64,000 bases of DNA, taken from positions 96,001-160,000 of the forward strand of contig CBDDDG010000022.1 in NCBI GenBank assembly GCA_965226555.1, given 5' to 3'. Numbering within the stretch: the stretch's first letter is position 1; every line of letters begins with the position of its first letter. The stretch is from Salinispira sp. GTDB lineage: Bacteria > Spirochaetota > Spirochaetia > DSM-27196 > Salinispiraceae. Positions 4,717 through 26,155 of this stretch are shown one piece after another. The translations under genes were made by a program, and so were the position numbers. The notes under the pieces were generated by a model, which saw only the letters and a program-made list of their open reading frames with translations, was not told the origin of the DNA and did no database searches.

Positions 4717-4731
4717 AATTATACCTCCTTG

Positions 4732-4785: not shown

Positions 4786-5031
4786 TCATGGGAATTTCTC
4801 AAAACTGAGTAATTCCCCTTTGGGTTAAAACCCGTAATAATTGTTTACAGTATAAACCTTCTTTGCAGTTTGGCAAGACTTTTCTGAAAAAAGTTTGGGA
4901 AATAAACCTTTGGACAGATACACTGGGGGTTACTGAAAAACATAAAAGGAGAAAAATCTCAAATAATTTTCATCAGTTCATAAAGTTTCCAAAAGTTTCC
5001 CATATATGCGATATTTCACAGGAGGAATGCC

Positions 5032-6675: not shown

Positions 6676-6688
6676 GGAATGAGTCGGT

Positions 6689-8251
6689 TCAATTGGGAGC
6701 GGTCAGTTCAATTTCAAACGGACGTCCCCAGGGGAACGATACGGTGTAGTTTGCCCCGCGTAGCCAGTGGCTGTCGGGGAGTTCGGTTCTGAGGGCTGCG
6801 TTTATGCGGTCGCGGGTTTGTTCGCCCAGTGCGCGCAGGGTTTTTTCTGCGCTGGCTGCATTTGTTTCGCTGGCGGTTCGCGGGGGAAAGGGGGGGAAGT
6901 CTGACAGGCGGAGTTTCCGGCGGACAAGGGTCATGTATCCGAAGTCCTCGAAGATGCGCTGGCGGAGGAGGTCCCTGCTGTTGAGCCGGAGGACGGCGGC
7001 GGCGCAGACGGTGCCGATGGTGTTGCCGCAGGTGTTCCATGCTGCGTAGAAGGCCAGTTTGCCGAGGAGTCCGCGCCGGTCAAGCAGGCGGAGCAGGGCG
7101 CGGTCGCCGCCGTTTGTGTAGCTGATGTCGGCAAGATAGACGGCTGTTGAGGGGGGCAGGGCGGCTATTGCATCTGCAAGGCGGATGAGCTGCGGGGCAG
7201 GGCGGCTGGCGGACGCGCTGAGTGCATGCGTTCGGGGCGCGGGAGCTGGCGCGGGCTGTTCGGAGGCTTCGCGGGTGGCGCCGAGGGGGAGGTTGAAGGC
7301 GATGGCGAGGTCTTCGGGGGTGGGCGATTCGCTGATATTGGTCAGGGTGAAATGTTTCTGGATGCAGTCGGCGAGTTTCAGGTTTTCATAGCGGGGAATA
7401 ATTTCCAGACCTGCTCTGTGACTGTGAATAGGGAATATGCGGGTGGGCTGGCCATTTTTCCGGACATCTTTCCATGCCCGCGCGGCGAGGCTGCAGCCTG
7501 TTTCATCTGCTCCCGGATAGTGCAGAATGCGCGCGTGCAGGGGGGGGATGTTGAGCTGCATCAATTCCAGAGAGGAAAAACTGAACGCTGCGTTGTCGTC
7601 CTGAGGGATGGCGAGGCAGCCGATTCTGCCGTCCAATGCTGCCCGCAGAAGTTGCCGTGTGTATGAAAGGTTAAGTTGTCGGCGGGGCAGGTAGTCGCGC
7701 AGAATGTCGGGGGGAATGTCGGTTCGCAGGGCGGAGAGTTCCTGTTCTTCCTGCCTGCGGATAATACCGGTTGCCTGCCTGTGACGGAGGGCTCCGAGGC
7801 GATGGAGGCTGGCGCCCCAGTGTTCGCAGTACTCCGGTTCTTCGTCCGCTGAGTTGTATGATGGGCTGCGCATAATGACTACGCTGACATATAGTTTCAG
7901 GTGCGGGTAACGGGACCCGAGACCGAGCAGGGTGTTGAGGCGGTCGTTGAGCCTGTACCGGTCTAATGTGTGGATGCGGGAGGGGAGAAGTCCGCCGTAG
8001 AGGAGCATATCGGCTGAGGCAACGATGGCAGATGCCTGCCCCGCATACCGCTGTATCCAGTCGAATATCGCCGGAACATCGGCGGGTTCTTTCCTGAGTC
8101 CGAGCAGGGCGCGGGGCACCGACCGCAGCTCAGTCCGCGCATGAGTGTTCGCATCAGCCCTAACATCGGCCCTTACATCAGCAAAAAACTGAACCGGCCA
8201 AGAAGAATTACAGGGGCGTTCATCGAGGGGAATGGAGAGAATTATATTCAT
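6689..8251 (-). CDS. DUF4127 family protein
   Basis: Motifs IPLDERP, YGGLLPSRIH, YPGADE, ADISYTNGGD and YAAWNTCGNTIGT. Confidence 0.75.
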   Translation of the reverse strand: MNIILSIPLDERPCNSSWPVQFFADVRADVRADANTHARTELRSVPRALLGLRKEPADVPAIFDWIQRYAGQASAIVASADMLLYGGLLPSRIHTLDRYRLNDRLNTLLGLGSRYPHLKLYVSVVIMRSPSYNSADEEPEYCEHWGASLHRLGALRHRQATGIIRRQEEQELSALRTDIPPDILRDYLPRRQLNLSYTRQLLRAALDGRIGCLAIPQDDNAAFSFSSLELMQLNIPPLHARILHYPGADETGCSLAARAWKDVRKNGQPTRIFPIHSHRAGLEIIPRYENLKLADCIQKHFTLTNISESPTPEDLAIAFNLPLGATREASEQPAPAPAPRTHALSASASRPAPQLIRLADAIAALPPSTAVYLADISYTNGGDRALLRLLDRRGLLGKLAFYAAWNTCGNTIGTVCAAAVLRLNSRDLLRQRIFEDFGYMTLVRRKLRLSDFPPFPPRTASETNAASAEKTLRALGEQTRDRINAALRTELPDSHWLRGANYTVSFPWGRPFEIELTAPN

Positions 8252-8252
8252 A

Positions 8253-8306
8253 GAAACTTTTGCATTGGAAAATTGTGCAAGCACAATTTCCAGTAGCCAA
8301 AGTTTC
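8253..8306. repeat. Palindromic repeat, long type, copy 2 (inverted relative to copy 1)
   Basis: GAAACTTTTGCATTGGAAAATTGTGCAAGCACAATTTCCAGTAGCCAAAGTTTC. Confidence 0.85.
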
Positions 8307-8365
8307 CGATCTGGAATGCTTTCTTTGTGCTTAGCATTCTCCTATTTTATAGAAACTTTTGCATT
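8302..8365 (+). repeat. 64-bp dispersed direct repeat (second copy at 29077-29140)
   Basis: GTTTCCGATCTGGAATGCTTTCTTTGTGCTTAGCATTCT... matches 29077-29140 with 3 mismatches on manual comparison. Confidence 0.85.
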
Positions 8366-8412
8366 TTGTAAAACTTTGTCATAGAAACTTTTGCATTTTG
8401 TAAAACTTTGTC
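8349..8412 (+). repeat. Perfect 2 x 32-bp tandem duplication built from the palindromic-repeat terminus
   Basis: ATAGAAACTTTTGCATTTTGTAAAACTTTGTC at 8349-8380 and 8381-8412. Confidence 0.9.
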
Positions 8413-8468
8413 ATAACATTATGCAATGGGAATAGTACATAAAAGGAAATGTTTTGTATAATACCGAC

Positions 8469-11400
8469 ATGGAACCGGAAGCTATTGTTATTTCCCGGAT
8501 GCGGGCGGTTATGGTGGAGCTGGAGAAGCGGCTTTTTGCCGAAGTATGCCCGCTTGAGGGGCGCATTACCAGCTCGGCGCGTGCTGCTATTCCGCGCGCG
8601 GAGCTCGGGCAGCGGGAATGGCGGGCAATTGCGCTGGGGGAGAGATGGGGCGAGCCATGGGGACGAGCATGGTTTCTGTTTACCGGAGCTGTGCCCGCGG
8701 AGGTGCGGGAGAGTCCTGAGCGCTATGAAGCTCACATCAACATTGATGCCGAGGGCTGTGTCTATGTGAACGGGAAGCCCCACATCGGGCTTACGCATGG
8801 AGGGGCGCCCGGGGAGTTTTATCTGAAGCGGAAGGTGCCCCTGCGCGCGGAAATGTTTTCCAGAAATAGTGTGGAGATTTTTGTTGATGCCTCGGCGAAT
8901 CGGCTTTTCGGGGTTGCCCCGGGCGAGGATGCCGAGGAGCGAGGGCAGCGCGGAATGTACCGGCTTCGGGAGGCGCGTGTTGTTGCGCCTGATCGCGTGG
9001 TGGAGGGCATGGTTTTCGATATGGGCTTTCTGCTGGAGCTGGCGCTGGCCCTGCCGGAGAGATCGCGGAGGCGCCGAGTTATTCTGCGCTCTCTGAATGA
9101 TGCGGCAAATGTTATGGACAGCGGGGGCGGATACGGGCGGGCAGCGAAGTTGCTGTCGGCGCAGATCCGGGGGCAGGGAGGCGATACGGGCACGGAGGTC
9201 ATTTCGGTGGGGCATAGTCACCTGGATCTCGCGTGGCTGTGGCCGCTGCGGGAAACGCGGCGGAAGGCAGTGCGGACATCTGCAACAATGCTGCGGATGA
9301 TGGAGCGCTATTCCGACTATGTGTTTGGTTTCAGCCAGCCGCAGATGTATGCGTGGATTGCGGAGGACGAGCCCGAGCTGTTCACGGAAATTGCAGCGCG
9401 CGTTAAGGATGGGCGATGGGAATGCTTCGGCGCGCTCTGGGTTGAGCCCGATACGAACATTCCGTCATACGAGTCGCTCATTCGCCAATGTCTGTACGGC
9501 AAGCAGTACTGGAAGAGCACCTTCGGCATTGACTCCACTGTCGCCTGGCTGCCGGATACCTTCGGCTTTACGGCAGCCCTCCCGCAGATACTGAAGGGCT
9601 GCGGCATCGACAATTTTATTACCATCAAATTATCATGGAACGAACGGAACGCCTTTCCTTACCATGCCTTTCAATGGGAGGGAATTGATGGGAGCAGAGT
9701 GAATGCCCACATTCTCCCAACGCACAATTACAATTTCGACAACACTCCGGCGCAGCTTCGGGAGGCCGATTCCCGCTGGGAGGCCGGCGGACTTCTCGAC
9801 AGCTATCTCAATCTCTATGGTATTGGAGATGGGGGCGGCGGTCCCTCCATTGAGCATATTGAGTACGCCCGGCGGGCGGCCGACTGCGAGGGGCTGCCGC
9901 GTGTGACCATGATCGGCACTGACACCTTTTTCAGGGCCTTGCGCGGCGCGGCACCCGCCCTCCCTGTCTGGAAGGGCGAGCTCTACCTTGAACTGCATCG
10001 GGGAACCTATACCACGCAGGCAGAAATTAAGCGCCTGCACGCCCTCATTGAACTCGCCCTCCACGATCTCGAAGCTGTCTCGGTGCTGTACCGCCGCAAT
10101 CCGCCGCCCCAGCTCGAAAGCTGGTGGAAGATCCTGCTTCTCCATGAATTTCACGACATTCTCCCCGGAAGTTCCATTCATGAGGTCTATGTCGAAGCGA
10201 AACAGACACTGGCATCACTTCTGGCCGATGTGACCGGCGCCATACAGAATATTTTTGATATGAGTCCGCCGCCGATCGAACCCGCAACCGGGAATGATCC
10301 TGCACCGGCGCCCGCGGCGCTTACCCTCGTAAATACCAGAGGTATGGCAGATAGTGGCTGGGTTGAGCAGGGATGCGCGCACATTGCCTACGACCTACCG
10401 CCATTTTCCCATGCAGTATTTAACACGGTGCACGGTGAGCTGCCCGGTGAAAGCGCCTCTGAGGCCACGGAGTCCGCAAGGGCCGCAGAGAAGCCGAAAA
10501 CCGGCGAGTTCCTCCGGCAGAACGGCGCGTACATATTGACAAACGGCATTATCAGCCTGCGCATCAATGCCCGCGGGGCCATTACCTCCCTGCGCGATGA
10601 GCGCAACGGGAGAGAACTGCTGGAGGCGCCCGGAGCGCGGTTCCTGCTCTGGAAAGACAAGCCCTTCAATTGGGACGCCTGGGATGTGCCCGGTTATTAT
10701 CGGGAAACCAGCCCCAAAGAAGCTTCCATGACCGGCATTGACCTCATCTTCAACGACACCCGCGGCATCCGTTTGAAACTGAGCTACGCCGTGGGGAAGT
10801 CTTCCTTCACCTGCCTCCTGACCCTGCGTCCGGATTCGCCGCGCATCAATATCGACCTCAGCATCGACTGGCAGGAACGGAGAAAAATGCTGCGCCTGAG
10901 CCTGCCGACATCCATTCGCAGTTCCTTCGTGAACTGCGGAATTCAGGGCGGCTACGTGCAGCGATCCACGCTCATGAACAACTCATGGGAGCAGGCGCAT
11001 TTTGAGGAGCCGGTACATCGTTTTGCCGATATTTCCGATGCCCGGGCAGGTCTCGCGCTGTTTGCCTTCGCAAAATACGGCTTCCATTTCTCCGACTCCC
11101 TCATCGACCTGAACCTGCTGCGTTCTCCAATTGATCCCGACCCGGAAGCCGATGTCGGCACCCACTCCATCCGCCTAGGACTGTACTGTCATAACAACTC
11201 CTTCCATGAATCTGATGTCATAGATATTGCCGAACACTTCCATCACCCGCCGCTTGTCCTGCCCGGGGCGCCGCCTCCCGCCCTTCAGCCCATCCGCATT
11301 GCCTGCATCGACTCCCCGCGCACAACCCTGCGCATTCGCTTGCTGAAACCCGCCGAGTCCGGCGCTGGCAGCATCCTCCGCATTGCCGAAACCCGCGGTT

Positions 11401-11555
11401 GCCCGGGGAGCATCCGCATTGCCCTGCCCGCCGACACAACCCGCGCTCAAATCTGCAACTACCTCGAAGAACCCCTTGAAGACCTTAAAATTATCTCCTC
11501 CGAAATTGAACTCAGCGCCGCCCCCTTTGAGGTCAGAACAGTGCTTCTGACATAA
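8469..11555 (+). CDS. Alpha-mannosidase, GH38 (class 2C-like)
   Basis: GHSHLDLAWLWP, WLPDTFG, GDGGGGP, GELYLELHRGTYT, FHDILPGSSI. Start could be 8454 or 8469. Confidence 0.93.
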   Translation: MEPEAIVISRMRAVMVELEKRLFAEVCPLEGRITSSARAAIPRAELGQREWRAIALGERWGEPWGRAWFLFTGAVPAEVRESPERYEAHINIDAEGCVYVNGKPHIGLTHGGAPGEFYLKRKVPLRAEMFSRNSVEIFVDASANRLFGVAPGEDAEERGQRGMYRLREARVVAPDRVVEGMVFDMGFLLELALALPERSRRRRVILRSLNDAANVMDSGGGYGRAAKLLSAQIRGQGGDTGTEVISVGHSHLDLAWLWPLRETRRKAVRTSATMLRMMERYSDYVFGFSQPQMYAWIAEDEPELFTEIAARVKDGRWECFGALWVEPDTNIPSYESLIRQCLYGKQYWKSTFGIDSTVAWLPDTFGFTAALPQILKGCGIDNFITIKLSWNERNAFPYHAFQWEGIDGSRVNAHILPTHNYNFDNTPAQLREADSRWEAGGLLDSYLNLYGIGDGGGGPSIEHIEYARRAADCEGLPRVTMIGTDTFFRALRGAAPALPVWKGELYLELHRGTYTTQAEIKRLHALIELALHDLEAVSVLYRRNPPPQLESWWKILLLHEFHDILPGSSIHEVYVEAKQTLASLLADVTGAIQNIFDMSPPPIEPATGNDPAPAPAALTLVNTRGMADSGWVEQGCAHIAYDLPPFSHAVFNTVHGELPGESASEATESARAAEKPKTGEFLRQNGAYILTNGIISLRINARGAITSLRDERNGRELLEAPGARFLLWKDKPFNWDAWDVPGYYRETSPKEASMTGIDLIFNDTRGIRLKLSYAVGKSSFTCLLTLRPDSPRINIDLSIDWQERRKMLRLSLPTSIRSSFVNCGIQGGYVQRSTLMNNSWEQAHFEEPVHRFADISDARAGLALFAFAKYGFHFSDSLIDLNLLRSPIDPDPEADVGTHSIRLGLYCHNNSFHESDVIDIAEHFHHPPLVLPGAPPPALQPIRIACIDSPRTTLRIRLLKPAESGAGSILRIAETRGCPGSIRIALPADTTRAQICNYLEEPLEDLKIISSEIELSAAPFEVRTVLLT

Positions 11556-11891
11556 CCAGATCAAGTCGGTCTTTGCGAAAGGCGTTTATTGTATGAAAAT
11601 CCGGGCATTGGGTGCCTGCCGGCGAAAGAAAAATGGAAAGAATGTGGGCACGCAACAGCGGGCATTCAGCACTTTCTCATTTGAGAGTGCTTGAATATCA
11701 ATAACAAAGGATCGAAATGATTGCCTATCTATGAAGGCTAAAAAATGTCAGGAATGCATGATTTTTTTGACAGGATATTGACGAAACTTGTATCCAATTT
11801 ATGGGGATGATGACGGGGCAGCAACAAACAATTCGCGCGCTCGGGCGCTGCCCTCTTGCGGACATCCGCAGGCATGCACATGCTTTCACAT

Positions 11892-13088
11892 TCAAACTAA
11901 GGTAATAAGATATCGAAGAAATTTTTTACTTGTCTCAATGTTGATGTCGTTGTTCGGTTTCAGAATAAGCTCACGTATCGTTTCTCCATGGAATTGAGCC
12001 ACTCCTCGTGAATTTCTCCCTGCCCAATGTTTACGAATATCTGTGGTATTGAGCAAATCAGTTTGAAATACCGATACTAATGCCTGACCAGCAATTTTAT
12101 TTGGGTAAATACCGATAAAATAAAACATGAAAACACTTTTCTCATTGGATAAAAACCTCAGGAACTTATCAATATTGTAGGCCTTGGGAGAAGATTTCAA
12201 AACCATTATCTTTGTTTTAACATCGATGGCTGTATGGTAATCATCAAAAAATTTTGTATAATCGCCTAATTCATTTTTTGTTTTAAACTGAAAGAGTTTT
12301 CCAACATGTTTTCTCAATTCGTCACGGAGTTTACCTCTCATATTCTCATCTTCTCCGATAACGAGATATTCAATTACCCTGCCCCTGATATTCACGTTTT
12401 CTATGAACACAGCTTTGAGAATTTCGTCCTTACAATTATTAACCCTTCTGTTTAATTCAGATGCAAGCGTAATATATTCATTTGATTTGGTGAACTGAAG
12501 AGTTCGTTCGGGGGCTGATAAAATACACGCCTTTTGAGTGGCAGAGACTTCAAACTTACTGCCTGATGGAACAATATTTGTTGTTGCTGCAACAAGACGA
12601 TTGAGAGTATCAGTAAAATTAATTTTCTGATGTATAGCAAAAAGTTTTTCAAAATTTTCCGGGGAATTTTTAAGTCCATTAAATTCTCTCATAATATCGG
12701 CACCATTAAAGCTCCCTCTGATGTTATCAATTCGTAAATCTTGTGAGCTATGGCTGATCTTTTGCAGAAATGTTGAATTTGCCATATAGAGTATGTTTTT
12801 ATTCGGTGTTACAAGACATACAATAAACGGACGTTCATCATATTTTCGCAGAGTCGAAAGGGACAAAACGGTATTCGAAAAACTGTTGGAGGCAGATACA
12901 CTAAAGCGCAGCGCAAAATGTTCTGAATAATATACTGTCCTGTCTCTGGTCAATTTGAATTGCTCTTGTACAGATTCAGCAAGTAATGCCTTATCTGCAA
13001 TGCCGTTCTTTCTTTTAATATATGCTACCAATGCTCTTAGATTACTATTTATGACTATTGGGAACCTCTGGAAACTCGAATTTTTCAT
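11892..13088 (-). CDS. Putative restriction endonuclease (PD-(D/E)XK-like)
   Basis: Directly downstream of the MTase; candidate catalytic LGD...AIDVKTK motif. No family recognised with certainty. Confidence 0.55.
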   Translation of the reverse strand: MKNSSFQRFPIVINSNLRALVAYIKRKNGIADKALLAESVQEQFKLTRDRTVYYSEHFALRFSVSASNSFSNTVLSLSTLRKYDERPFIVCLVTPNKNILYMANSTFLQKISHSSQDLRIDNIRGSFNGADIMREFNGLKNSPENFEKLFAIHQKINFTDTLNRLVAATTNIVPSGSKFEVSATQKACILSAPERTLQFTKSNEYITLASELNRRVNNCKDEILKAVFIENVNIRGRVIEYLVIGEDENMRGKLRDELRKHVGKLFQFKTKNELGDYTKFFDDYHTAIDVKTKIMVLKSSPKAYNIDKFLRFLSNEKSVFMFYFIGIYPNKIAGQALVSVFQTDLLNTTDIRKHWAGRNSRGVAQFHGETIRELILKPNNDINIETSKKFLRYLITLV

Positions 13089-13205
13089 GATTCATTGCGT
13101 AAAACAATGTTGTTTTAAGCTCAATCATGCGGTCACTGGTTAATTTTTTCTGCCAGATATTAGGTTTCCAGAGGTTCCCTATTACTCCTTTCCTGTCATA
13201 TGCAT

Positions 13206-14162
13206 TCATCTTCTCAGCGATCCGCTTTTCATCAGCTCCGCAATCGGGGCGGGCGAATTACGTTCACGGAACACTCCATCAGCATATCCCTGAATTGCGG
13301 AATCGCGCTCTGCCATGGCTAATCGCTTTTCGGTTAAGCAACAGTATTCCTCGCTCATTTCAATGCCAATAAATTTTCTCTTGAGCTTCTTTGCTGTAAC
13401 CGATGTTGTTCCGGAACCGACAAAGGGATCCAGCACCACATCGCCTTCATTTGAGGATGCGAGAATTGCCTTGGCCACAAGTTTTTCGGGCTTCTGGGTC
13501 GGGTGGTCAGTGTTTTCTGGCATTGACCAGAAGGGAATGGTAATATCTGTCCAGAAATTTGAAGGATGCGTTAATCTGAATTTGCCATTGCCATTTTCTG
13601 TCCAGTCCTTCGGTTTGCCGTTGACCGTGTACGGAGCAATGACTTTTCGCTGTAACTTCACCGCATGAACATTGAAGGTGTAATTGTCCGATACTGTTGC
13701 AAACCACATATCCTCCGCGCAATTCTTCCAGTTCCCCAAGGCGCCGCGCCCCTTCTCCCGCTCCCAGGTGATTCTGTTCCGTATCTTAAAATGCCTGTCT
13801 AAAACAGCAAAAATCTGCTGTGAACTCTTCCAGTCGCAGCACACATACATTGACGCAGTCAGCTTGAGCGTGTGCCGTATTGCGAGTATCCAGTTTTCAA
13901 AGGTTTTCTCATACCCATTGGCGGTTTGCGCGCGAAATCTGTTGCCGCCAAAGTTTTTATTCATATTATACGGCGGGTCAATAAAGAGCAGATCAACTGA
14001 AGACTCAGGCAATAAGGGCGCAATTTCGAATATATCGGCATGAATTGTCGTGTTGATACACTTGCCATTGAAGGCTTCTTTTGTCAACAATCGCTTTTTT
14101 AAGATAGCTATTTCGTCCTCTGTCAGATATGTTGTTCTATTGTTCTTTGCCCGTTCTTTCAT
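13206..14162 (-). CDS. Site-specific DNA methyltransferase (N4-C/N6-A, beta class)
   Basis: DPPY motif N-terminal, then HPTQKPEKL and VLDPFVGSGTT. Confidence 0.92.
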   Translation of the reverse strand: MKERAKNNRTTYLTEDEIAILKKRLLTKEAFNGKCINTTIHADIFEIAPLLPESSVDLLFIDPPYNMNKNFGGNRFRAQTANGYEKTFENWILAIRHTLKLTASMYVCCDWKSSQQIFAVLDRHFKIRNRITWEREKGRGALGNWKNCAEDMWFATVSDNYTFNVHAVKLQRKVIAPYTVNGKPKDWTENGNGKFRLTHPSNFWTDITIPFWSMPENTDHPTQKPEKLVAKAILASSNEGDVVLDPFVGSGTTSVTAKKLKRKFIGIEMSEEYCCLTEKRLAMAERDSAIQGYADGVFRERNSPAPIAELMKSGSLRR

Positions 14163-16951
14163 GGTGATGACTTTAATACAGTATTGAGATACTGTCAAGT
14201 TCAATGACATGGAATATTAATATTTGAGATATCTCCATTTCATTTATTAAAAAAAACAAAGGTTCCCCCACCAGTAAAATGTGCTCTAAAGATCAGACAT
14301 CATATAGCATACCCTGAGGGTTACCTTCCAATATCGTCAAAGCTCTTATCCTATTTAAATGCGGGTGGGCAAATTGATTGCGGTAGCTGCGCAAGCAACC
14401 ATAGCAACTGGAATCGCACCCGCACCCACCTTCCACCCGCTCTTTTGATTTAGCCAGAACATTGCGAAAGATATCGACATCTTCTAGCTGTGCCACCAAT
14501 CCTGCCCCACCGGGAACATTATCATATAAAATGATCGCTATTTCATTCGGATTTTCGCCTTTAGCAATTGTCACATTCAAATCTCTATCTGGCACGCTCA
14601 ATGCTGCTGATGCTCCAAGCATAATTGAATAGGCAACAGAATATGCCTGCCATGGTTCGCAAAGTCCCGGAAACTGTAAACGCACTACATCGGTAACCAG
14701 CTCATGTCCCAATGAATATTTGCCCAATGCACATTCACAATCAGAACCCCAAGGAGTTTTATGTGATGAAGATTGTGGTTTCGTAAAGTGCGCGCCACAG
14801 GAGCGACAGATATAAAACCCCTGTTTTTTCTTGCCCTCACACAGAATAACCAAAGTACCAGGTGATGCTCTTGTTATTTTTATTTCATCAATCAATGTTG
14901 TTTGCGGCAATTCTTCATCCCTAAAACCATCGAAGAATGGTTGGGTAGTATAAAGGCGTTGAGTGCGCCTGTTTGGGATTTTTGGTTTCTTTTGCGCAAC
15001 GAATCCGAATATGGGAATGAGATATTTTTTGCTATTTTCTGATTGAGCGTCTTCTAATTTCTGAAAGTCATAAGCGTTATGGTAAGTGTAGTTTTGAATA
15101 GGACAATTTTTGCCTTTTACTATTTTAATGCCAGACGATACCCATTCTAATTTATTGGCAATTATTTTACTTCCAGCCGCATACTCAGCAATTGCTTGAG
15201 ATAAATCCCGCTGCAATGTAAGTTTATTGTTATCGGTTTCTAGTTCTACAACATCTACCGGAAAACCATACTTGGGAATGACTGCTTTACGGGAGAGAAA
15301 ATTTAATGCCGATTCACCAGAAATGGTGTCTATGCGTTTTTCTATGGCATCAGTCCCTTTGTTCATCGTAAAATGTTCTTGTCTCAATTCTTCCAATTTA
15401 TGATAATCCCCACATACTTCGCTTTCCACATTAGCAAGGCGGCTGTCAGGGCCTGTTATTTTGTCAATCCATGAATCATTGTCAATTCCCATTTTATTGT
15501 GCATGCTTTGAGGAATGATTGCGCGCAACGATCTTTTCAAATAATTATTGGTTTTACAGAATACAAACAGTTCAGATTTCGCAGCAGGATTCTCCCAATC
15601 GTGAATAAAGGATTTAACGTTCTTAAAGCGGTCTTCATTTTCCTTGAAAAAGGCAGATAAAACTGTGGCGACTACGTGTCGTAAAATAATTTTCTCGTTT
15701 GTTACTTGTAAGCGTGGCGGGTGTATTGTGCTGTTAATTATTCGCTCCTCCGGATTTTCATAGTGATAGAGATCATGAGGGTTACGACGGCAGTAGGTTA
15801 TTGCTAATCCTTGAGTATTTCGACGTCCAGCTCTTCCGACACGCTGCGTATAGTTAAAAGGCTCTGGAGGCACATTACGAAGAAAGGTAATTTCCAGATC
15901 GCCCAAATCAACACCAACCTCAAACGTAGTAGAAGAACTGAGCAGATGAATACTCCCCATTTTAAATTCATTTTGCCGTTCTTGAGCAACATTGCTACTA
16001 AGTTGAGCAGTGTGTTCTTCAGACCGCAGCGAATAGGGTAGTTCGGCATTTTCATCGCCATTGTTATATAATGCTTCCCACACACGATCCATAAGTTTTG
16101 TTGTTTCTTTTGTGTTTTTCTTCATCAGATAATTTACTGTTTGCGAGTAAGCGATAAAGAAAATGTTTTACAACAGCAGATTGAGCTCCTCCCCACTGAG
16201 ACACGTTTCGGGTGCTTCTTGGCTGTCCGTAGGTATACGCCCATTGCGGGTATGGAGAAAGTTTTTTCCAATTAGGTGTCTCTGCTTCTGTTGGTAATTC
16301 CATGGCGCGTCGCAAACGCATTTCGTTTAGGAGGTACATTAGCAGGTAATATAATTCATCATCGTTGAAGTTCCATGGAGGTTCCTGCAATGGTATTAAA
16401 TCATCCAATTTTATAAAATGTTCAGGCAGTGCCACAAACCACCGGACTAACCCTACGCCGCTGAGCGATAGCCTCTTTTCCTCCGTCAGGCTTTCCTGCA
16501 ATATTGATGTTAATATGTTCCGCCCTCTTGTTTCCTCTGTGTCATCACTTTTGAATAATCCCGCTTGCGCATATTGCTTGTATAATCTGCTTTTAAGGTC
16601 TTCAACGGATAAACCTTCTTCATTGACAGCTTCTGATCGAATGGCTCGAAGTAAAAAATTACGATCACGCAGTTTTTCGTAAGAATCTTGAGCGTACCAT
16701 GCAAAAAATGCGGCTCCTTGGCGACTGTCGGCAAAGGCCAGCACCTTGCGTCTGCCTTCGGGTAGTGACTCATGGAGGGCAGTAGCAATAACAGCATTAG
16801 GGCCGTCTGTCCCGTGTACAATTTCTTGCACAGGATCTCCAAAACTGCCTCGTTGATAGTCACAAACCTCACATTTCTCCAGTTGGTCAGGATTTTTTTC
16901 GTAAGCTTTGCATTTCCTGACTGATCTTGCTTCGAAAATTCGGACAATCCG

Positions 16952-17836
16952 CTAAGCAACACAACAGGATTCTCCTGCTGTTTTCAAAGCATAATTCATC
17001 GGACTCATATAGTCAAGAGAAGAATGAAGCCTCTCTCGGTTATACCAGTTGATGTATTCAAAAACTATCTTCCGCGCCTCCTGAAGGTTCTGAAACCTCG
17101 GCTTACCAAGCTCATTCTTCAGCGTGTGGAAAAAACTTTCCACAAAGGCATTATCGTAGCAATTCCCCCTTCTCGACATCGACTGGGTAATATGTAACAT
17201 TTCCAGTTTGTCTCGAATGCTCTGCGCGCAATACTGCGTTCCCTGATCTGAATGAAAGACCAAGCTATTCAACTCCCCGGGAGTTCTCCGTACGGCCTGT
17301 AACAGAGCCTTTTCCGTCTGTGTGCTCTCCATGGAATCACTGACATTCCAGCCCGTAATTTCCCGGGTATAGATGTCCAGAACCACAACAAGGTACGCAA
17401 ATCCTGCGCCGGCGGGCAGGTACGTGAGGTCCGATGCCCAGACCTCATTCGCTTTCGTAACCGTGGAGCTTTCAATGCGAAACACCCGCGGAGACTTCTT
17501 CTGGGATGGATTGCTCATTGTTGTTCGCGGGCGATATGCCTTCGTTCTCCCCGCATTGAGCCCCGATTCCCTCATAAGCCGGGCGACTCGGTTCCTCCCG
17601 ATTGCTTCACCATGAAGATGCAGCAGCCGGTGAATTCGGGGCGAACCGTAGCATCCCTTATTTTCAGTATACACACGCAGGATTTTACCCGTAAGCTCAT
17701 CATCCCTGCGGGTGTTTTTGGACGGTTCTCTCTTAAGCCAGTCATAGAATCCCGAGCTGGACACCTTCAGAAGTTTGCAGCATGGTGCAACAGCATGTCC
17801 GGTCTGCTTCAGCTGCTCAATTCCTCGATACTTCAT
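16952..17836 (-). CDS. IS3 transposase OrfB (DDE integrase core)
   Basis: YGSPRI, WASDLTY, FHSDQGTQY, GNCYDNAFVESFF, YNRERLHSSL; ATG overlaps the orfA stop (ATGA). Confidence 0.95.
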   Translation of the reverse strand: MKYRGIEQLKQTGHAVAPCCKLLKVSSSGFYDWLKREPSKNTRRDDELTGKILRVYTENKGCYGSPRIHRLLHLHGEAIGRNRVARLMRESGLNAGRTKAYRPRTTMSNPSQKKSPRVFRIESSTVTKANEVWASDLTYLPAGAGFAYLVVVLDIYTREITGWNVSDSMESTQTEKALLQAVRRTPGELNSLVFHSDQGTQYCAQSIRDKLEMLHITQSMSRRGNCYDNAFVESFFHTLKNELGKPRFQNLQEARKIVFEYINWYNRERLHSSLDYMSPMNYALKTAGESCCVA

Positions 17837-18123
17837 TTCAGGCTCTCCTTTCTGCAAAAAAAAACCATTGCATCATTGAGTATTGCCACCGCCTTTTTCT
17901 CGGCGCGCAGTTCCTTTCTCAATCGTTTGTTCTCGGCCAGGGCTTCCTGAAGTTCCCGAAACTCGGGACCTTTCTGGTCGTTCCGAACCCATTTCGCGAG
18001 GGTATGATAACTTGCTATACCCAGCTTTTCCGTCGCCTGCTTCGTGCCAATTTCTTTGGCAAGCTCCACAGCCTGTTCCTTAAAATCCTCAGCATAGAAT
18101 TTTCTGACTTTCCGTGTTTCCAT
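17833..18123 (-). CDS. IS3 transposase OrfA (HTH)
   Basis: FKEQAVELA...LGIASYHTLAKW HTH followed by a leucine-zipper ENKRLRKEL. Confidence 0.92.
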   Translation of the reverse strand: METRKVRKFYAEDFKEQAVELAKEIGTKQATEKLGIASYHTLAKWVRNDQKGPEFRELQEALAENKRLRKELRAEKKAVAILNDAMVFFCRKESLK

Positions 18124-19547
18124 AACACTCTCCTCTCCCTATAGTATCGTGCTTAGAAGAGTGTCCGTTAAATCGAAGCAAGATCATGACAAAAATTCTT
18201 GCTTCGCGGTTGCAACTACATTTTGGTTCAGATAAAGGATGCAATAATTCACCGCAACAACGGCATAATTCCAAATCTGTTGCGTCTGTTACGGGCAAAT
18301 AGTAATCTACCCCAAAATCTGTTTGACTCGGATCACGATTGGCTTCCACAAGTTTCCCGTTATTTTCTTTACCAACGTAATAGTGCTGTCCACATTCTCG
18401 ACAAAGGGCAATTTCCAGTGGCTTAGCTTTTCCATTGTCGCCTTTACGATTTAGTACTATAATGTCTTTGTTATTTTGATGAAGTAGGAATGCTCCTTCC
18501 AATGCGCGCAAAAACGCATGGAGTCGAGGGTGTTTTTTCGCTGGTATTGATTCACCAAAAGTAACGCCGGAATCAGAGAATGATTCTTCAAAGAGTTCCT
18601 GCGCAAAACCCGCAACAATTTTTTTATTATTGTCATTTTTGCTGGAGACAAGGGTGGCGCTTGTAGCGATACATCGAAAAGAATCTTTTTTTCCGCCATC
18701 GTACAATCGTTGTTTGAGGCGTCGAATTAACATGCCCATTTCCATGCCCTTGGTTCCACGGTACTGATGCGCTTCGTCAAGCACAATGAATTGCCAGTTG
18801 GCGCCTTTTCCGTTATCAAACAATGGACTATCATTTGGACGAATAAGTAGATATTCCAGCATTGAATAGTTGGTTAGCAAAATATGCGGAGGATTTGCCC
18901 GCATGTCCTTTCTAAAAATTAACTCTCCCGGATGAGGTTGCTGATCTGTTCCATTGCGGTACCGATTATTCTTATTCTCTGGTGTCTGCCCAATATATTG
19001 TCCAAACGTTGGCAAGAAGGAAGAATTATTTTCTTGTAATTTTTGACATATATCTCCAATCCGTTCGCGCTGATCATTTGCGAGAGCATTCATCGGATAT
19101 AGAATTAAAGCCCGAACTCCGGGATCGCTAAGCTTTCCATTCAAATGCTGCTTATATAACTCAAAAAAGATAGGGTAGAGAAAACACTCCGTTTTACCAC
19201 TGGCGGTGCCAGTTGCAATAACGGTATTTTCATTGTTCTCACACATGGCACGGATAGCATGTTCCTGATGAGAGTAGAGTTCCCTGTCAGCTAGAGCAGG
19301 AATAAGATGATTGGCTTCATTGCCAAAGTATTCTTGCGCAAGCCTGCGCGCATTTAATCCTTTCCTGAAGTCCTTTTGTTCTTCAGGGGTCACCTTCTTT
19401 AATAACTGATTCTCTTGCTCTAAGGCGGCTTGAAAAGATGCTCTCAGCGCCGGATCTTTGAAGAAAAATGAAGTTTTCAGGTAACTTTCATATCGACTAC
19501 GAACTTTTTCACAGATTTTATCAGGGGTGAGTACAGATTGGCTATTA

Positions 19548-21482
19548 TCATTGCTGCTCATTTGCGATCCTCACAATTTTGTCTACATTAACAAAATGAA
19601 TACTTTTTCTTCGTTTATCAACTGGCAAATACTTTAATTCTTTTTGCATCATTTCACCTTTAAGGGCTTGGGTTACTTCCCCCGCGCTAAAACCTTTGCC
19701 GTGTCTATAGCCCCAACTGCGTTTTACCATCGGAATCACTGAAGATGCAGGGTGAGCTATTTTAGGTAGTAAAATCTGAATTTCAGGTTGTGCAATCTGA
19801 ATGAGCTGCTGCACTTTGTCACCAATGATTGCCTTCAAATACTTACAATCATCCAGATTATCATATCTGAACTCTCGAAGAGGAATAGGGATCAGTGAAT
19901 ATCCCGTTTCATTTTGATTTTGGCGAGGATACCTCCTGCCCTGTTGATTATCCCATGCAATTTCAACTCTTTTAATATGGCGGGGTAGCCATAAGTGAAT
20001 TTCCGCATTAGCATCGCCATAGTTTTTAAACTTTTCAGGAGTCATTTGGAAACATGTGTCTTGCCAGTCTGCCGATTCGTTATTCATACACCACCAGATT
20101 CTGGGCAGGTGTAACGAAATCGTAACTTCATCGTTATTGGAGTTACATGTAAATATTTGCTTATCGTATGCTGCGTATGGCGCAACTTCAAATGCGTTCT
20201 CATTTTTTGTCATCAATTTACAGGTATTTTTTGCTGTCAAATCAATATTGTTTCCAATAAACTGAATTCTTGTTGAAGTATGTCCGCTTTTATCTGGTAG
20301 CAATATGGTATTTTCGACATATTCTCCTCCGTTTATTGTAATTTTCTCAAGGCCCTGTATATAGCGAAACGAAATGCTATCTTGCATTTTAATGTTTTCA
20401 TCGTAGACGCGAAGAAAGAACCGTCCTTGCCTCTGAGCCATAACATCTATAAGCTTTTGCTCGGGAAGTTTAATATTTTCTCCCCAGCCATCTGCTTTCT
20501 CTTCACCAACTCGCGCCCAGACAATGTTCTTTCCTGCTATAATCTGTGGCAGATTACCAACAAATAGCTCATTTTCATTATTTGTAAATAGACATTTTCC
20601 CTTTAGTTCTACGGCAATGGATGATGTCAGTGCAATAGGTTTACCCTCATCATCTCTAAATTCATAATTTTGCGTTGATGCATCTTTGTCAAGAAAATAA
20701 AAATGCGCCATAAATCGTTTATCACTACAAAATTCCGGTTCGACACGTATATTACTACCGATTCTTTCCCACTGTTGGGGAGCAATCACAATGAAATGTC
20801 CTTTGGTTAATGTGGAAATTTCACGTCCATCATCACTCCAGTCATTTTTCATTTTAAAAATAAGAGGTTTATTTTCTTTATATAACGTAATTTTGTCGCT
20901 ACTGCCATCAGTAAATATGGTTAACAAATTTTCTGTAAACGATGTTAATTGATATTCGTTATTTAGAGTGTTCAGGCAGCTACCGTTTTGCGTAATCTCC
21001 CTAATTTCCCTACTTTCATTTACCGATAGAAAAATACTCCAGCCAGTAGAAAGATTGCGACAGATAAATTCGGGTTTTGGTTTTATAAAAGAATTATCGC
21101 TTTTGTTCTTATTGTGCTTTTGATGTTTTTGCGTTCTTTTTCCAGGTGCCTTTATTGGACCGCGGTTTGAGTCAGTTTTCTCATTGTGAATGGGATTTTG
21201 AGGCAGCTGTACGGGATCAAGGGGAGGTTGGTGTTGGGTATTATCCGGTGGAGATATAATTTCTCGAGTTGGAGTAGCTGTAATGCCCCCATCTCCCGCT
21301 GTCTGGTTACTGTTAATACGATCATGTGATATTTCAGGTTCAATAGCAGGAGTAGTGGGCTTATTTCCGTTATCCCGGGAATCATTTTCAGCATCAGATG
21401 TCTCATGCATATTATCCTCTTTGGATAATAATTGTGTAATCCACCGTTTACAGAGATTGATTATTTTGCGAATCCAATTCAT
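19548..21482 (-). CDS. Uncharacterised 644-aa protein with a C-terminal ribosomal protein eL13 (L13e)-like domain
   Basis: C-terminus PMVKR...RHGKGFSAGEV...LPVDKRRKSIHFVNV resembles the L13e consensus (R-x-G-R-GFS-x-x-E...I-x-VD-x-RR-x-S-x-H-x-x-NV). Overlaps the helicase start by 14 nt. Confidence 0.7.
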   Translation of the reverse strand: MNWIRKIINLCKRWITQLLSKEDNMHETSDAENDSRDNGNKPTTPAIEPEISHDRINSNQTAGDGGITATPTREIISPPDNTQHQPPLDPVQLPQNPIHNEKTDSNRGPIKAPGKRTQKHQKHNKNKSDNSFIKPKPEFICRNLSTGWSIFLSVNESREIREITQNGSCLNTLNNEYQLTSFTENLLTIFTDGSSDKITLYKENKPLIFKMKNDWSDDGREISTLTKGHFIVIAPQQWERIGSNIRVEPEFCSDKRFMAHFYFLDKDASTQNYEFRDDEGKPIALTSSIAVELKGKCLFTNNENELFVGNLPQIIAGKNIVWARVGEEKADGWGENIKLPEQKLIDVMAQRQGRFFLRVYDENIKMQDSISFRYIQGLEKITINGGEYVENTILLPDKSGHTSTRIQFIGNNIDLTAKNTCKLMTKNENAFEVAPYAAYDKQIFTCNSNNDEVTISLHLPRIWWCMNNESADWQDTCFQMTPEKFKNYGDANAEIHLWLPRHIKRVEIAWDNQQGRRYPRQNQNETGYSLIPIPLREFRYDNLDDCKYLKAIIGDKVQQLIQIAQPEIQILLPKIAHPASSVIPMVKRSWGYRHGKGFSAGEVTQALKGEMMQKELKYLPVDKRRKSIHFVNVDKIVRIANEQQ

Positions 21483-21626
21483 TATGATTGATAATAGTTT
21501 TAAAAATTTATGACGTCAATAGATGGATGCCATTGCAAGTCATCTTGAATCCAAGAATTATAAAATCAGGGAGAAACACACTACATACGAAAGGGGTGAA
21601 GATATAGCGGGTAATGAGGAACGGCA

Positions 21627-22832
21627 ATGAGTAAATCAGCGTATGGGCAGCCAATTATTATTACAGAAGATGAAAAGCTTCTTAAGCCCCAGCAGCCTCC
21701 GAAGCCGGAGGAAGATGAGAAATTTCTGCAGGATCTGATTTTCAAACATGCCGATTGCCTGCCCGTATCGGAAATTGATGACGCCTACACCCCGCTGATC
21801 CCCGTTTGCAGGGAACTGAATACGCATGCCGGTCCCCTAGACATTCTGATGGCCACGCCTGCAGGCAAGCTCGTGATAATTGAAACCAAACTCTGGAGAA
21901 ATCCGGATGCCCGACGGAAGGTAGTTGCGCAAATCCTCGATTATGCGAAAGAACTTGCCCGGTGGTCTTATGAAGATTTATATCGGGAGATTAACAGAAA
22001 CCTGCAGACCTCAGGCAATCATCTCTATAATACGGTTACCGCCTCAGCAGGTGAAGCTTCAGCCCTCGATGAAGCTGCTTTTGTTGATGCTGTGAGCAGA
22101 AACCTCCAAAAAGGTGAATTTTTGCTGTTGCTGGTCGGAGATGGAATTCGGGAGGGCGCAGAAAGATTAACCGAATTTCTGTCAACTGCCGGTAATCTTG
22201 CCTTCACATTTGGCATGATTGAAGTTGCTTTTTTCAAGGCACCGGACATTGGCACTCTGATTATTCCCCGGGTAATAGCCCGCACAGTCGAAATTCAACG
22301 ATCAGTTGTTGAACTCCCTCCGGGACTGCAGCTCCGGGAAGTTGCCGATCAATTTGATACATCACTTTCTCCAGAACGAAAAAAGGAGAAAGAGTTTTAC
22401 AGTACTTTCTGGAGAGAATTTATCAATGGACTTTCACTTGATGATCCCGGACAGCCAATGCCGCATCCTTTAAATGCCGAGAACCAATATTTTTATCTGC
22501 CACCGCAGCCTCCAAAAAGGGTATGGATCAGCGCAGCTTTTATTCCGAGTAAGAAGCAGGTTAGTGTATATTTCACCTGTAGTACCATTCCGCCCGGGCC
22601 TGATATGGCTGAAAAACTGGAGTTTGAGAGGGATGAAATAGTTGCCGAACTTTCCAAACTCGGTGAGGGAATTTACTGGGATATGCCGAAAAGCGTCGGT
22701 GTCTACCGATCTGTTGATGATATATTTGCCCCGGAGAACCGGCAGATAATTCAGGACTTCTTTCAAACCTGGGTAAACCGGTTCATCAATGCCTTTAGGC
22801 CGAGACTAAAGCGGCTGTCTGAAGACAGATAA
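21627..22832 (+). CDS. NucS-like PD-(D/E)XK endonuclease with DUF4268-like C-terminal domain
   Basis: LDIL...IIETKLWRNPDARRKVVAQILDYA nuclease motif; second domain begins FYSTFWREF. Confidence 0.7.
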   Translation: MSKSAYGQPIIITEDEKLLKPQQPPKPEEDEKFLQDLIFKHADCLPVSEIDDAYTPLIPVCRELNTHAGPLDILMATPAGKLVIIETKLWRNPDARRKVVAQILDYAKELARWSYEDLYREINRNLQTSGNHLYNTVTASAGEASALDEAAFVDAVSRNLQKGEFLLLLVGDGIREGAERLTEFLSTAGNLAFTFGMIEVAFFKAPDIGTLIIPRVIARTVEIQRSVVELPPGLQLREVADQFDTSLSPERKKEKEFYSTFWREFINGLSLDDPGQPMPHPLNAENQYFYLPPQPPKRVWISAAFIPSKKQVSVYFTCSTIPPGPDMAEKLEFERDEIVAELSKLGEGIYWDMPKSVGVYRSVDDIFAPENRQIIQDFFQTWVNRFINAFRPRLKRLSEDR

Positions 22833-23454: not shown

Positions 23455-24653
23455 TCATCCGAGCGCGCGCAATTTTCGCATTAATTTCTCCAGGGAAACA
23501 ATGTGCGCATCGTTGCCAATGGGAAACTCGTCATCGCCGCCATAGACGACATACCTGCGCACGGCGCCAATGTCATCGCAAATCTGGTGAAAATATCTGT
23601 TCACCTTGGGAGCAAGCCCATATTTGACTTCCACAGCCCAAACATCCGCGTTCGGCATGGTTATGAGCAGATCAATTTCTGCGCCGGCGGCGCTGCGGTA
23701 GAAGTGGGTTTTTGCGAGGGAGGTAGGACTGAATGAATGTTTTCCACAACAAAACCTTCCCAGCTCTTGCCGATAATGGGGTGAGACAGCAGCGCATCGC
23801 CATTCCCAATGCTCAGCAGCCGGTGGAGCAGGCCGCTGTCGCGCACATAATAGCGCGGCGATTTCACCAGCCGTTTTTTAGCATTCCTGTGCCATGGTTC
23901 AATTCGCCGAAGCAGCAACAGATCGGTCAGAATGTCGATGTAACGGCTAACGGTCTTGTGGTCTGTTTCCAAATTCGCCCCCAGTTGCGAAACATTCACC
24001 GGCTCGCCCTGAAAATGGGCAAGCATTGTCCATAAACGTCTCAGCCGGACAGCGGGAACGCGAAACCCCAGCTGCGGCACATCGCGCTCCACATAGGTCC
24101 GAATTAAATTTTCCAGCCATTCCATGGCTGTCGCGTCAGTATCGGCAAGATAACTATCGGGAAATCCTCCCCGCAGCCACAGACGCTGAACATGATTCTG
24201 AGATTCGCCAATATCCAGCTTCATTTGAGAATCGCCGGTCTCCAGAACATTAAGCCCCGTCAGTTCAAGATAGCTGATGCGGCCGGCAAGGCTTTCTGAC
24301 GATTGCCGCAATACCTCCATGGAGGCAGAGCCCAACAGCAAAAATTGAGCAGCGCTGCGTCCGTCCTGCCGATTCCGGTCGATAATGCCGCGCAGAATCC
24401 TGAAAATTTCAGGAAACTGCTGTATTTCGTCCAGAATAATGAGCTTTTCGCGCCGCGAATGAAAAAAAGCAATTGGATCGCTCAATTTCAGTGTGTCTTC
24501 TGGAGATTCTAAATCGAGATACAGAGCGCTCATATCGCGCTCCAGAGATCGGGCAAGTGTTGTCTTACCCACCTGGCGCGCGCCAAGCAGGGCAACCGCA
24601 GGCACTCGCGCAATGTGTTTCCTGAGCCTGTCGCCCATTAACCGTTCCAACAT
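23455..24653 (-). pseudogene. AAA_14 ATPase + DUF4143 protein, one frameshift near 23715
   Basis: GARQVGKTT, ILDEIQ, LLGSAS, RGGFP, LVKSPRYYVRDSG; continues in another frame as FYRSAAGAEIDL...AVEVK. The frameshift may be a sequencing error. Confidence 0.85.
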
Positions 24654-24777
24654 ACCGGTATAGTAGGCGATACATGCCAAAATTACAAGGCCTCAGTACG
24701 TTTTACCGTGTAATTTGGGAATTCGATGCCCAAATTGCACGGTAAAGGTGAAATGTATTGGTTTTGTTATTGGTCTG

Positions 24778-26155
24778 TTATTTATTTGGGGGAGAAGTTT
24801 GCTCATGGGGCATCAGGCGCCGCAGCGGACGAAAATAGGTTTTGGGGCTGTAATCGGCAAGATCAGATACTCTGGTCATATACACACAGGCATAGCTACT
24901 AATCTGCTCGGCATAACGGCTTTCTTCGAGACCGGCGCGAAGCACCTCTCCCCAGTATGGATTAAAGTATTCTCTGTATTTGATGAGAAGTTCCGATATA
25001 CGGTTATTTAACCATTCAATTTTTTTCAAATAAGGTATCAAGTTCGGCTCGGTTAGCCGCTATTCCTTCATGCCGGGCAATATCAAGTTGATTCAGCTTC
25101 AGTTCGAGGGCAGCCTTTTCTGCGTTCAGATGAGCAATTTCCTGCTGAGTGGATTCCCCCCTGAGCACTCCCTTCATCTCATCCTCAAGATCGCTGAGTA
25201 CGAGACCTGTTCGCCAGTCGCAGCTTTTCTTAATGGTAATAACATCACCGTAAATATGGTCGCCGAGGTAAAGAATTTCGTTACCCTGTAATCCAAGATC
25301 CTTTTGAAGTTTTTTAAACCATCCGCCCTGATAAATACCGGTGATCACCTTACCTTCATAATTTGTCATGTTTCCGGTTTTCGTGTCGACCTTGAGAAAG
25401 CGGTGAGCCTTCTGAAAAAATTCCGGTTTGTCTGCAAGGGTTATGACAATATCGAAAAGTTCACGCCAATTCTTATGATTTTTCAGATATGGAGTAATTG
25501 CGTAGTCGAGAATGGTTCGGGAATAGGTATATTCGCTGTTTGTGATCATCATGAGTTTTTTACCATAATCTATGTAACGTTCAAGCAGGAGCGGAATGCG
25601 TTTATCGAGAAGGATGAGGCGCTCGGGCCTATTCTCTAAGACCTTTTTAATGGAACCGTCAATATGCGCGGTATTAATTGCGTCCTGTACGTTCTGTCCA
25701 ATATCGGCGAGCGATGGAAGTTTTACTCCCGTGTTATATAAATCCACAAGCTGGCTGTATAAAACTCCGGCAGAAATGGCAAAATTCGTATCGAGAGGAA
25801 TAAAATTCGTATCTTGAATATCAATTGCGATATTCTGATAAAAATTCTGAACCTGCCGATAATGTATTTCCTTCAATCCATGAAATGCCCTTTTCACCTT
25901 ACCAAAGCGATTGAGCTTCAGAAGGTTACCGTTTTTGCTGTCAATTACCAGACCGACAATGGCACGGTCGTAATCAAATTCAAGTTCCCGTATTTCCGGC
26001 GGATATTCATAGTGTTCGGTGAGTATACGTAATGCTTCGGTATGCGCAAGTTTTTCAAAAGCTTTGATATTGTAGCATACAAGAGTGTAGTCCATATCGA
26101 AGCCGATGAGTTTGATTTTTTTAAGATTCAGGGAACGATTTACGTATACTGCCAT
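24778..26155 (-). CDS. HAD-IG (cN-II type) 5'-nucleotidase, frameshift in an A7 run at about 25020
   Basis: GFDMDYTL, ITNS, KPEFF, LYLGDHIYGDV; C-terminal part FNPYWG...YACVY...RRLMPHE lies in the adjacent frame. Confidence 0.88.

Follow-up and report, generated by a model that had tools for sequence, protein, structure and literature searches.

Is the gene block at positions 11892-21482 of the DNA stretch considered here a single undescribed defence operon, or do several systems stand side by side in it? The stretch, which we call the window, comprises 64,000 nucleotides from Salinispira sp. (GenBank assembly GCA_965226555.1, contig CBDDDG010000022.1, positions 96,001 to 160,000). The original prediction had seen there four co-oriented, closely spaced genes, coding for a 644-residue protein that ends in a domain resembling ribosomal protein eL13, a large helicase of the DruE kind, a DNA methyltransferase and a nuclease. 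It had proposed that they form a new Druantia-like subtype, adding that the last two might instead be an independent restriction-modification (R-M) system. We consider it probable that the block holds the remains of a Druantia-like module of two genes, now decayed, beside a type II R-M pair that is separate from it, and that the intact module of relatives is anti-phage. Judged from sequence, what is new is the partner of the helicase, not the helicase core. On the minus strand the open reading frames (ORFs) follow each other in the order 644-residue ORF, 490-residue ORF, two frames of an insertion sequence (IS), then ORFs of 255, 610, 334 and 398 residues. This arrangement bears out the co-oriented layout, including the overlap of 14 nucleotides (19548-19561) between the first two genes.

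The partner ORF (19548-21482, minus strand, 644 residues) is intact. Is its product a known subunit that has drifted? It finds no PADLOC family, even at E<=10, and no Pfam family. At E<=1, none of 42 relatives matches the DruH models of PADLOC; as a control, the DruH of Escherichia coli (1,119 residues, NC_010468.1) matches ten PADLOC DruH3 models. With hhalign, the comparison with E. coli DruH yielded a probability of 0.2%, and that of the family profile with a profile of 24 diverse DruH sequences one of 1.07%. The precomputed Pfam families of DruH relatives, PF27205 and PF27201, were found on none of 120 partner relatives among the matches listed. An identity of the partner with DruH is thus ruled out by PADLOC, BLASTP, hhalign and the precomputed Pfam families alike, and the earlier suspicion that the protein is no known Dru, Drm or Dpd subunit stands. 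On these comparisons, the partner is without detectable kinship to DruH. No description of its family was found in the literature on Druantia, DruE or DruH, nor in that linking L13e or eL13 with defence: neither 'L13e' nor 'DruH' appears in the text of the four supplementary files of Bell et al. (2025; PMC12458937), figures lying outside this scope, and neither 'Ribosomal' nor 'L13' in those main texts on Druantia and its helicases that were searched.

The family is nonetheless far from small. A word-indexed search returned 289 relatives, none with an informative name (one is a 'hypothetical protein'), while a full hidden Markov model search of 1.84 billion representatives retrieved 1,580 proteins at E<=1e-3, of which 634 reach E<=1e-30. 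Its genomic setting was established from 51 loci (L001-L051) with a partner relative in GTDB species genomes, nearly all of them metagenome-assembled genomes (MAGs), from at least ten phyla. Many of these genomes are marine or host-associated MAGs (bins APA, COS2, RHO1, CAR2; SAR202; Binatia; Latescibacterota; Poribacteria-type). No cultured isolate is among them, which may be the reason why the family lacks a name.

Does the partner keep company with the helicase? Sequences matching all three helicase pieces of the window lie directly downstream, on the same strand, at 44 of the 51 loci, and at least the first piece does so at 47. The adjacency to a DUF1998 helicase on which the proposal of a subtype depended is therefore borne out by the neighbourhood survey. 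A contig end is reached at L015, one of four loci lacking a helicase match, and at the partial loci L002 and L047; L031, L049, L051 and L017 look like remnants. The helicase is a single uninterrupted ORF at 37 loci, at 17 of which it overlaps the partner ORF, as called, by 8 nucleotides, and no third neighbour recurs at more than three of the 37. Across phyla, the helicases are 57-79% identical and the partners 33-46%. In sequence, this is the pattern of a conserved engine with a fast-evolving companion.

Alongside the pairing, phylogeny and distribution bear on the mobility and defence context of the module. In a FastTree reconstruction of 25 helicases, which took 16 of the 37 helicases of the clade and carried a long-branch warning among the outgroups, those 16, all with an eL13-family partner, group in a single clade with support 100 that excludes the five DruH-partnered helicases. 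Branching inside this partner-associated clade ignores taxonomy and cuts across phyla. Presence is patchy: the partner family was found in one of 41 genomes, namely the genome of the window, whereas the other 40, relatives from the same family or order, yielded none.

What, then, is the helicase? The ORFs of 490, 255 and 610 residues are pieces of one DruE-type enzyme (Pfam DEAD, Helicase_C and MZB/DUF1998), in agreement with the DruE-like character proposed for it. Their best PADLOC families are DruE1 and DruE3, at 1e-63 to 2e-79, the middle piece matching weakly (1.2e-6), and other families are far behind (DpdJ 4.9e-22, DrmA 1e-9, DrmB 0.009). The window pieces are 57-62% identical to their orthologues. 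An intact orthologue, that of L003, matches DruE1 at 2.4e-146, and the intact orthologues of the 37 loci, 1,396-1,466 residues long, end at the MZB domain. Consistent with this, the DruE3 profile match of the third window piece stops at position 1673 of 2055, and there is no C-terminal nuclease domain. The profiles indicate that the helicase is a compact DruE, devoid of the PLD nuclease domains. Such helicases are not new. Table S1 of Bell et al. (2025; PMC12458937) lists two of the orthologues, the helicases at L021 and L035, under the label 'Type III-B-like' Druantia, and these two cluster tightly with the rest of the orthologues; two of twelve contig prefixes looked up were found, in the part of the table covered, and the label occurs there at least 1,449 times. 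The helicase clade is therefore already known and named, so that of the proposed new subtype the partner survives as new, while the helicase core does not.

Plasmids supply a side view of the same lineage. The closest plasmid helicases, some 30% identical, are at L057 (plasmid pNPD4_2 of Clostridium butyricum, 1759-9644) and L080 (pTF24b of Thermus thermophilus, 5478-11884). They are compact DruE-like enzymes of 1,559 and 1,640 residues, preceded, with an overlap of 4 nucleotides, by unnamed partners of 1,069 and 495 residues respectively. In the comparisons made, these upstream partners match neither the DruH profile nor the profile of the eL13-tailed family. It seems that this helicase lineage can, in general, exchange its upstream partner.

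The helicase copy of the window is broken, and its lesions were mapped on the intact L003 orthologue (1,399 residues). The first ORF (18089-19561, minus strand, 490 residues) contains helicase piece 1 (18187..19561), which comprises RecA1 with the DEAH motif (Pfam DEAD 3.9e-20; PADLOC DruE3 9.3e-64, DruE1 1.5e-63). It runs up to residue 453 of the orthologue, matching residues 12-453 at 61.8% identity (tblastn). There the sequence is interrupted by an IS3-family element, 1,265 bp long (16922-18186, minus strand), with orfA at 17833-18123 (HTH_Tnp_1), orfB at 16952-17857 (rve) and a GTCA target duplication at 16918-16921 and 18187-18190. Overlap of orfA and orfB, TG...CA ends, a target duplication of 3-4 bp and the existence of multiple copies place it in this family. 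Its ends, TGATC...GATCA, recur in all 11 full-length copies across a genome of 2.98 Mb; ten of these copies are 100% identical, and for this reason the IS looks recently active. Another copy lies, for example, at G000:C22:167900-169150, and target duplications among the copies are of 3 or 4 bp. A first pair of candidate ends, TTGCTTCG...CGAAGCAA with a GATC duplication, failed to restore the frame, and the ends of the other copies in the genome were used instead. Removal by script of 16918-18186, that is, of the IS proper together with one GTCA, restores a single open frame, which starts at 19561, counts 742 codons and ends with the stop at 16064-16066. The insertion lies where the original prediction had put it.

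Beyond the IS, helicase piece 2 (16064..16921, minus strand) matches orthologue residues 453-716 at 57.2% identity to L003, with weak DruE matches (1.2e-6), and meets a premature stop after a frameshift; as called, its ORF covers 16064-16831 (255 residues). The one-nucleotide frameshift, anticipated near 16110, is at or beside a run of five A (16115-16119), where the reading that matches the orthologue changes frame. A third lesion had been overlooked: at a junction placed approximately at 16036..16046, about 75 codons have been deleted, orthologue residues 716-811 being reduced here to only some 20 codons. The lost codons (near 16041) are carried by all orthologues, the unmatched stretch having been aligned in seven, and the window pieces lack the CxxC...CPxxxC zinc module, which 34 of 37 intact orthologues possess. 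Helicase piece 3 (14293..16125, minus strand; ORF of 610 residues with the same limits) retains RecA2, the OB-CON region and MZB/DUF1998 (Pfam Helicase_C 3.6e-9, MZB 4.5e-12; PADLOC DruE1 2.1e-79). With an insertion, a frameshift and a deletion, the window helicase reads as dead. Having been inactivated by the IS, it would make of the module a pseudogene at this place. The genome has no second copy of the gene beside the decayed one, and the module is presumably non-functional in it.

What kind of protein accompanies the helicase? In an AlphaFold 2 model (mean pLDDT 79, pTM 0.67), the partner begins with a helix (residues 2-23) and a disordered linker (24-127), which lead to an all-beta core (138-565); a small domain closes the C-terminus. 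When this predicted model was submitted to Foldseek and VIA-align, the core matched tandem immunoglobulin (Ig)/FN3 proteins only, with residues 289-377 aligning to FN3 domains at Z 6-7 in VIA-align. The DruH structure 9tud_A is not among the matches, and the libraries searched may not contain it. The partner is thus predicted to be a string of Ig/FN3-like domains with a tail of the eL13 type; its length varies between 443 and 1,173 residues among 237 relatives compared.

Several lines of evidence converge on this tail (residues 580-644 approximately, 19551..19745, minus strand). NCBIfam L13e matches the 644-residue protein at E=1.4e-5 with 24.6 bits, which is under the cut-off of 96, and there is no Pfam match; the cut-off of PF01294 (Ribosomal_L13e), which the protein does not reach, is passed by seven of 14 relatives scanned. 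The family profile retrieves the eL13 chain 9e6q_AH of the PDB at E=5.9e-10, and with E of about 1e-6 it also finds dozens of eL13 chains from eukaryotes. In VIA-align, the top four rows for the predicted model are eL13 chains (Z 7.5, 7.2, 7.2 and 6.9; root-mean-square deviation 2.4-3.8 A over 63-77 residues), the best being the eL13 of Pyrobaculum calidifontis, with Z 7.5 and a deviation of 2.4 A over 63 residues at 29% identity. With Z values below 8, the evidence from the fold is by itself modest. Taken with the profiles, it indicates that the tail is a real eL13 core, as the original prediction had proposed. The core motif positions are kept in 200 of 237 family members. In a motif search, the motif was found in 105 of 120 proteins and in 32 of 49 partner ORFs from genomes.

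A census of the same 237 proteins found 200 that align through the eL13-like end, 34 with the full core followed by another tail or by none, and three that are truncated. Among the substitutes are full uS17 domains (P0108, 2.4e-30; the partner of L024, 1.3e-28), a uS5 tail with both its N- and C-terminal domains (P0180), a bS6 tail (P0048, 5.7e-7), NusB followed by eL13 (P0077, 2.1e-27) and a helix-turn-helix (HTH) tail of the TrcR type (L044). A helix-hairpin-helix (HhH) tail in P0107 is weak, at 17.3 bits under a Pfam cut-off of 27, and several other tails have no Pfam match. At L024, the helicase gene follows the uS17 fusion, and the genome has its own rpsQ in the ribosomal operon, which shares 55% identity with the fused domain. 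With the helicase downstream and a separate rpsQ elsewhere, the fusion is therefore no artefact of gene calling. Because the helicase is highly conserved while the fold of the tail changes, the tail would be an adaptor for a variable target rather than a surface that binds the helicase, and we infer that this target is probably a nucleic acid.

How does the module compare with systems already described? Of the features that define Druantia III, a DruE helicase is present and so is the two-gene order with the partner upstream, and a DruH partner is absent. The closest relative is Druantia III-B, or 'Type III-B-like', which shares the module of two slightly overlapping genes, the partner's in front, as well as a compact DruE without PLD nuclease domains. 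The pair MSMEG_1253/1254 of Mycobacterium smegmatis (PMC13316683), taken here as the example of III-B, has, in the part of that source consulted, a DruH of 1,132 residues and requires both genes. The DruH of III-B counts about 1,100 residues, whereas here the partner has 644 residues, no relation to it in sequence and an eL13-type tail; the M. smegmatis helicase also has 1,667 residues, against about 1,400 for the present orthologues. A DruH sub-alignment led to 18 loci in metagenomes, none of them a canonical III-B DruH locus: where the sequence is long enough, their helicases have about 2,090 residues, and these loci are therefore III-A.

Druantia III-A, the DruH-DruE pair of E. coli ATCC 8739 and EDL933 and of Pseudomonas aeruginosa, likewise has a DruE-family helicase, the same gene order and a partner with tandem Ig/FN3-like domains, the generic PDB folds 1t0p and 7u7n recurring. 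Accessible portions of the 2026 preprints on type III describe DruH as a protein in which large helical domains at both ends enclose four to six Ig-like ones. The III-A DruE, by contrast, has about 2,100 residues and two C-terminal PLD domains (2,090-2,104 residues approximately in DruH-linked loci; lengths from E. coli ATCC 8739 and five DruH-linked metagenome loci). The large alpha-helical N- and C-terminal domains of DruH are missing in the partner described here, and the helicases fall in separate clades. As for DISARM and Dpd, their gene set was not recovered: PADLOC and the neighbour census revealed no split OB-CON-DUF1998 gene, PLD gene or conserved third gene at the loci. A more distant likeness is with TALON and TOTE (PMC12458937, in the part consulted), which also combine a YprA-type helicase with nucleic acid-binding domains borrowed from gene expression (cold-shock, TATA-binding), but with other proteins and another operon; no TPR, CSD, TBP or NERD nuclease is found here. 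Finally, the last 60 residues or so of the partner share the core motif and, to judge from a modest match, the predicted fold with eL13 of archaea and eukaryotes, with the difference that here only the eL13 core is present, fused to a non-ribosomal bacterial protein of 580 residues.

What would such a module do when intact? In type III Druantia, as far as the accessible portions of recent accounts go (10.64898/2026.05.13.724758, 10.64898/2026.05.12.722862, 10.64898/2026.05.13.724313, PMC13316683), DruE binds exposed single-stranded DNA and unwinds phage DNA in the 3'-to-5' direction. The same portions leave the role of DruH in dispute between preprints: a binder of single-stranded DNA inhibited by ATP, a 3'-5' exonuclease, or a scaffold. 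By analogy, the helicase of the present module would load on exposed single-stranded DNA of a phage during replication and unwind it in the same direction. Recognition of the target would fall to the partner and its swappable tail, which probably binds RNA or a single-stranded nucleic acid; the conserved Ig-like core of the partner would hold it to the helicase. As neither protein has a recognisable nuclease, clearance would rest on unwinding, immobilisation or nucleases of the host. In short, the intact module probably defends against phages as a pair, with the partner recognising and the helicase driving, a view that fits the low GC content, the PADLOC candidate defence genes and the adjoining R-M pair of its surroundings here.

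Several observations weigh against such a view. The defence role of this partner-helicase clade would follow from family kinship and from context. Because the partner has no detectable relation to DruH, the roles ascribed to DruH can be transferred by analogy only, and one preprint, in its accessible portion, assigns a nuclease site and the contact with DruE to precisely the helical end domains of DruH, N- and C-terminal, that the partner does not have. No recognised nuclease domain exists in partner or helicase. The ribosomal-protein tails, as identified by their profiles, point to RNA or the ribosome, not to DNA. PLSDB plasmids and IMG/VR contigs yielded no relative of the partner, so that the usual carriers of mobile elements were not seen. 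Lastly, the window copy is dead and unusable for direct testing.

The tails, indeed, inspire the strongest rival explanation, in which the module would be coupled to the ribosome or to RNA: the tail would dock on ribosomal RNA, on ribosomes or on nascent structured RNA, the module would sense or act on translation, transcription or phage RNA, and the helicase would work on RNA or RNA-DNA hybrids. Five ribosome- or rRNA-associated domains at the same C-terminal position of one protein family speak for it, as do the full-length uS17 tail of L024, 55% identical to the S17 of its host, and the persistence of the eL13 core motif in most members together with the archaeal eL13 match at Z 7.5. However, eL13 has no known site on the bacterial ribosome. 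Besides, HTH, winged HTH-like and HhH-like tails usually bind DNA, so that the common factor may be nucleic acid binding in general, and the helicases MrfA and DruE are DNA translocases in the portions of the literature consulted. We consider this coupling decidedly unlikely. A neighbouring idea, which we put forward tentatively and regard as unlikely, is that the partner family serves immunity as an adaptor, connecting a helicase of the Druantia type to the gene-expression machinery; the exchangeable tail would dock the complex on ribosomes, rRNA or nascent structured RNA, sensing being achieved via translation or transcription and not via DNA ends.

That helicase and partner would be a housekeeping pair for DNA repair of the MrfA/YprA kind, and not an immune device, is very improbable. 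The two groups do share a superfamily 2 core and the MZB/DUF1998 domain, the zinc-binding domain of MrfA, and YprA-family helicases include repair enzymes (PMC12458937, in the part consulted). Yet no exonuclease partner of the MrfB type is found here, the insertions are of the defence-branch type, and the best family matches are DruE models, with the published label of Druantia III-B-like. The occurrence of the family in one of 41 related genomes, a phylogeny that crosses phyla, the low-GC block and the defence-gene neighbours fit housekeeping poorly, and here the gene has been lost by decay without a second copy.

There remains the question of whether all four genes form one system. Downstream of the helicase lie a type II DNA methyltransferase of the N6/N4 class (13206-14210, minus strand, 334 residues; Pfam N6_N4_Mtase 6.4e-43, PADLOC MTase_II 3.1e-64) and a type II restriction endonuclease (11892-13088, minus strand, 398 residues; PADLOC REase_II PDLC03461 at 2.4e-132, positions 2-383 of 384). 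An operon in which the former marks self DNA and the latter is the effector, as in DISARM or ARMADA, would account for their common orientation, for gaps of 82 nucleotides (helicase to methyltransferase) and 117 nucleotides (methyltransferase to endonuclease), for the shared low-GC block and for a helicase pair without a nuclease of its own, but it is the least probable of all readings and was rejected, as the endonuclease is found at none of the 51 related loci, the methyltransferase is represented there by two short matches only, on different sides and strands, no neighbour exceeds the recurrence given above, a promoter-like site stands at the methyltransferase start, and the endonuclease belongs, over its full length, to a stand-alone type II family that is very common (at E<=1e-20 the enzyme has 3,908 homologues, one of them 96% identical in a 'Salinispira sp.' MAG). 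Since the endonuclease is complete and both genes are absent or nearly so from the related loci, they constitute a separate type II R-M system; of the two options of the original prediction, independence stands and operon membership falls. The reading frames of the R-M pair are intact, and the pair probably still works.

As to the surroundings, the AT-richer block that had been noticed is real: GC content amounts to 0.395-0.415 in the intervals 12-16 kb and 18-22 kb and to 0.55-0.61 in the interval 6-12 kb, and the sole break in the block's level of about 0.40 is the stretch with the IS. Just upstream of the partner ATG lies a promoter-like site, TTGACG-17-TATTAT (21491..21519, minus strand), a consensus match only, in a region where 32 such sites were counted against 22.6 expected. 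Both flanking genes of defence character, announced as NucS/DUF4268 and AAA-DUF4143, are also present, and PADLOC counts each as a candidate defence gene: a PDC-S11 protein with a weak NucS_C match (21627-22832, plus strand) and an AAA_14-DUF4143 protein of PDC-S01 (23661-24680, minus strand; 4.3e-77). A glyoxalase-family gene stands between them. Past 25 kb, the genes of the window are housekeeping-like. Elsewhere, an ORF of 305 residues (39303-40220, plus strand) matches Pfam Antibiotic_NAT (aminoglycoside 3-N-acetyltransferase) over the full length at 3.4e-78 and adjoins a MatE transporter gene (37964-39328). At 26155-29112, on the minus strand, M16 peptidase domains spread over short, partly overlapping ORFs (26155-27084, 26918-27670, 28282-29112), and this stretch may be another broken gene.

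Druantia is among the commonest defence systems of bacteria. The mechanism of its type III was worked out only in preprints of 2026, the accessible portions of which are discordant on DruH. Here, the same helicase lineage appears with another partner, half the size of DruH, unrelated to it in sequence and endowed with a modular tail, and this exchange suggests that the upstream gene is an exchangeable recognition module. The partner family also offers a clear case of a ribosome-type domain of archaea and eukaryotes at work in bacteria outside the ribosome. In the genome of the window, only the R-M pair is likely to be active. In the family, the succession of eL13, uS17, uS5, bS6, NusB and HTH tails would constitute a natural domain-swap series for the study of recognition by the partner.

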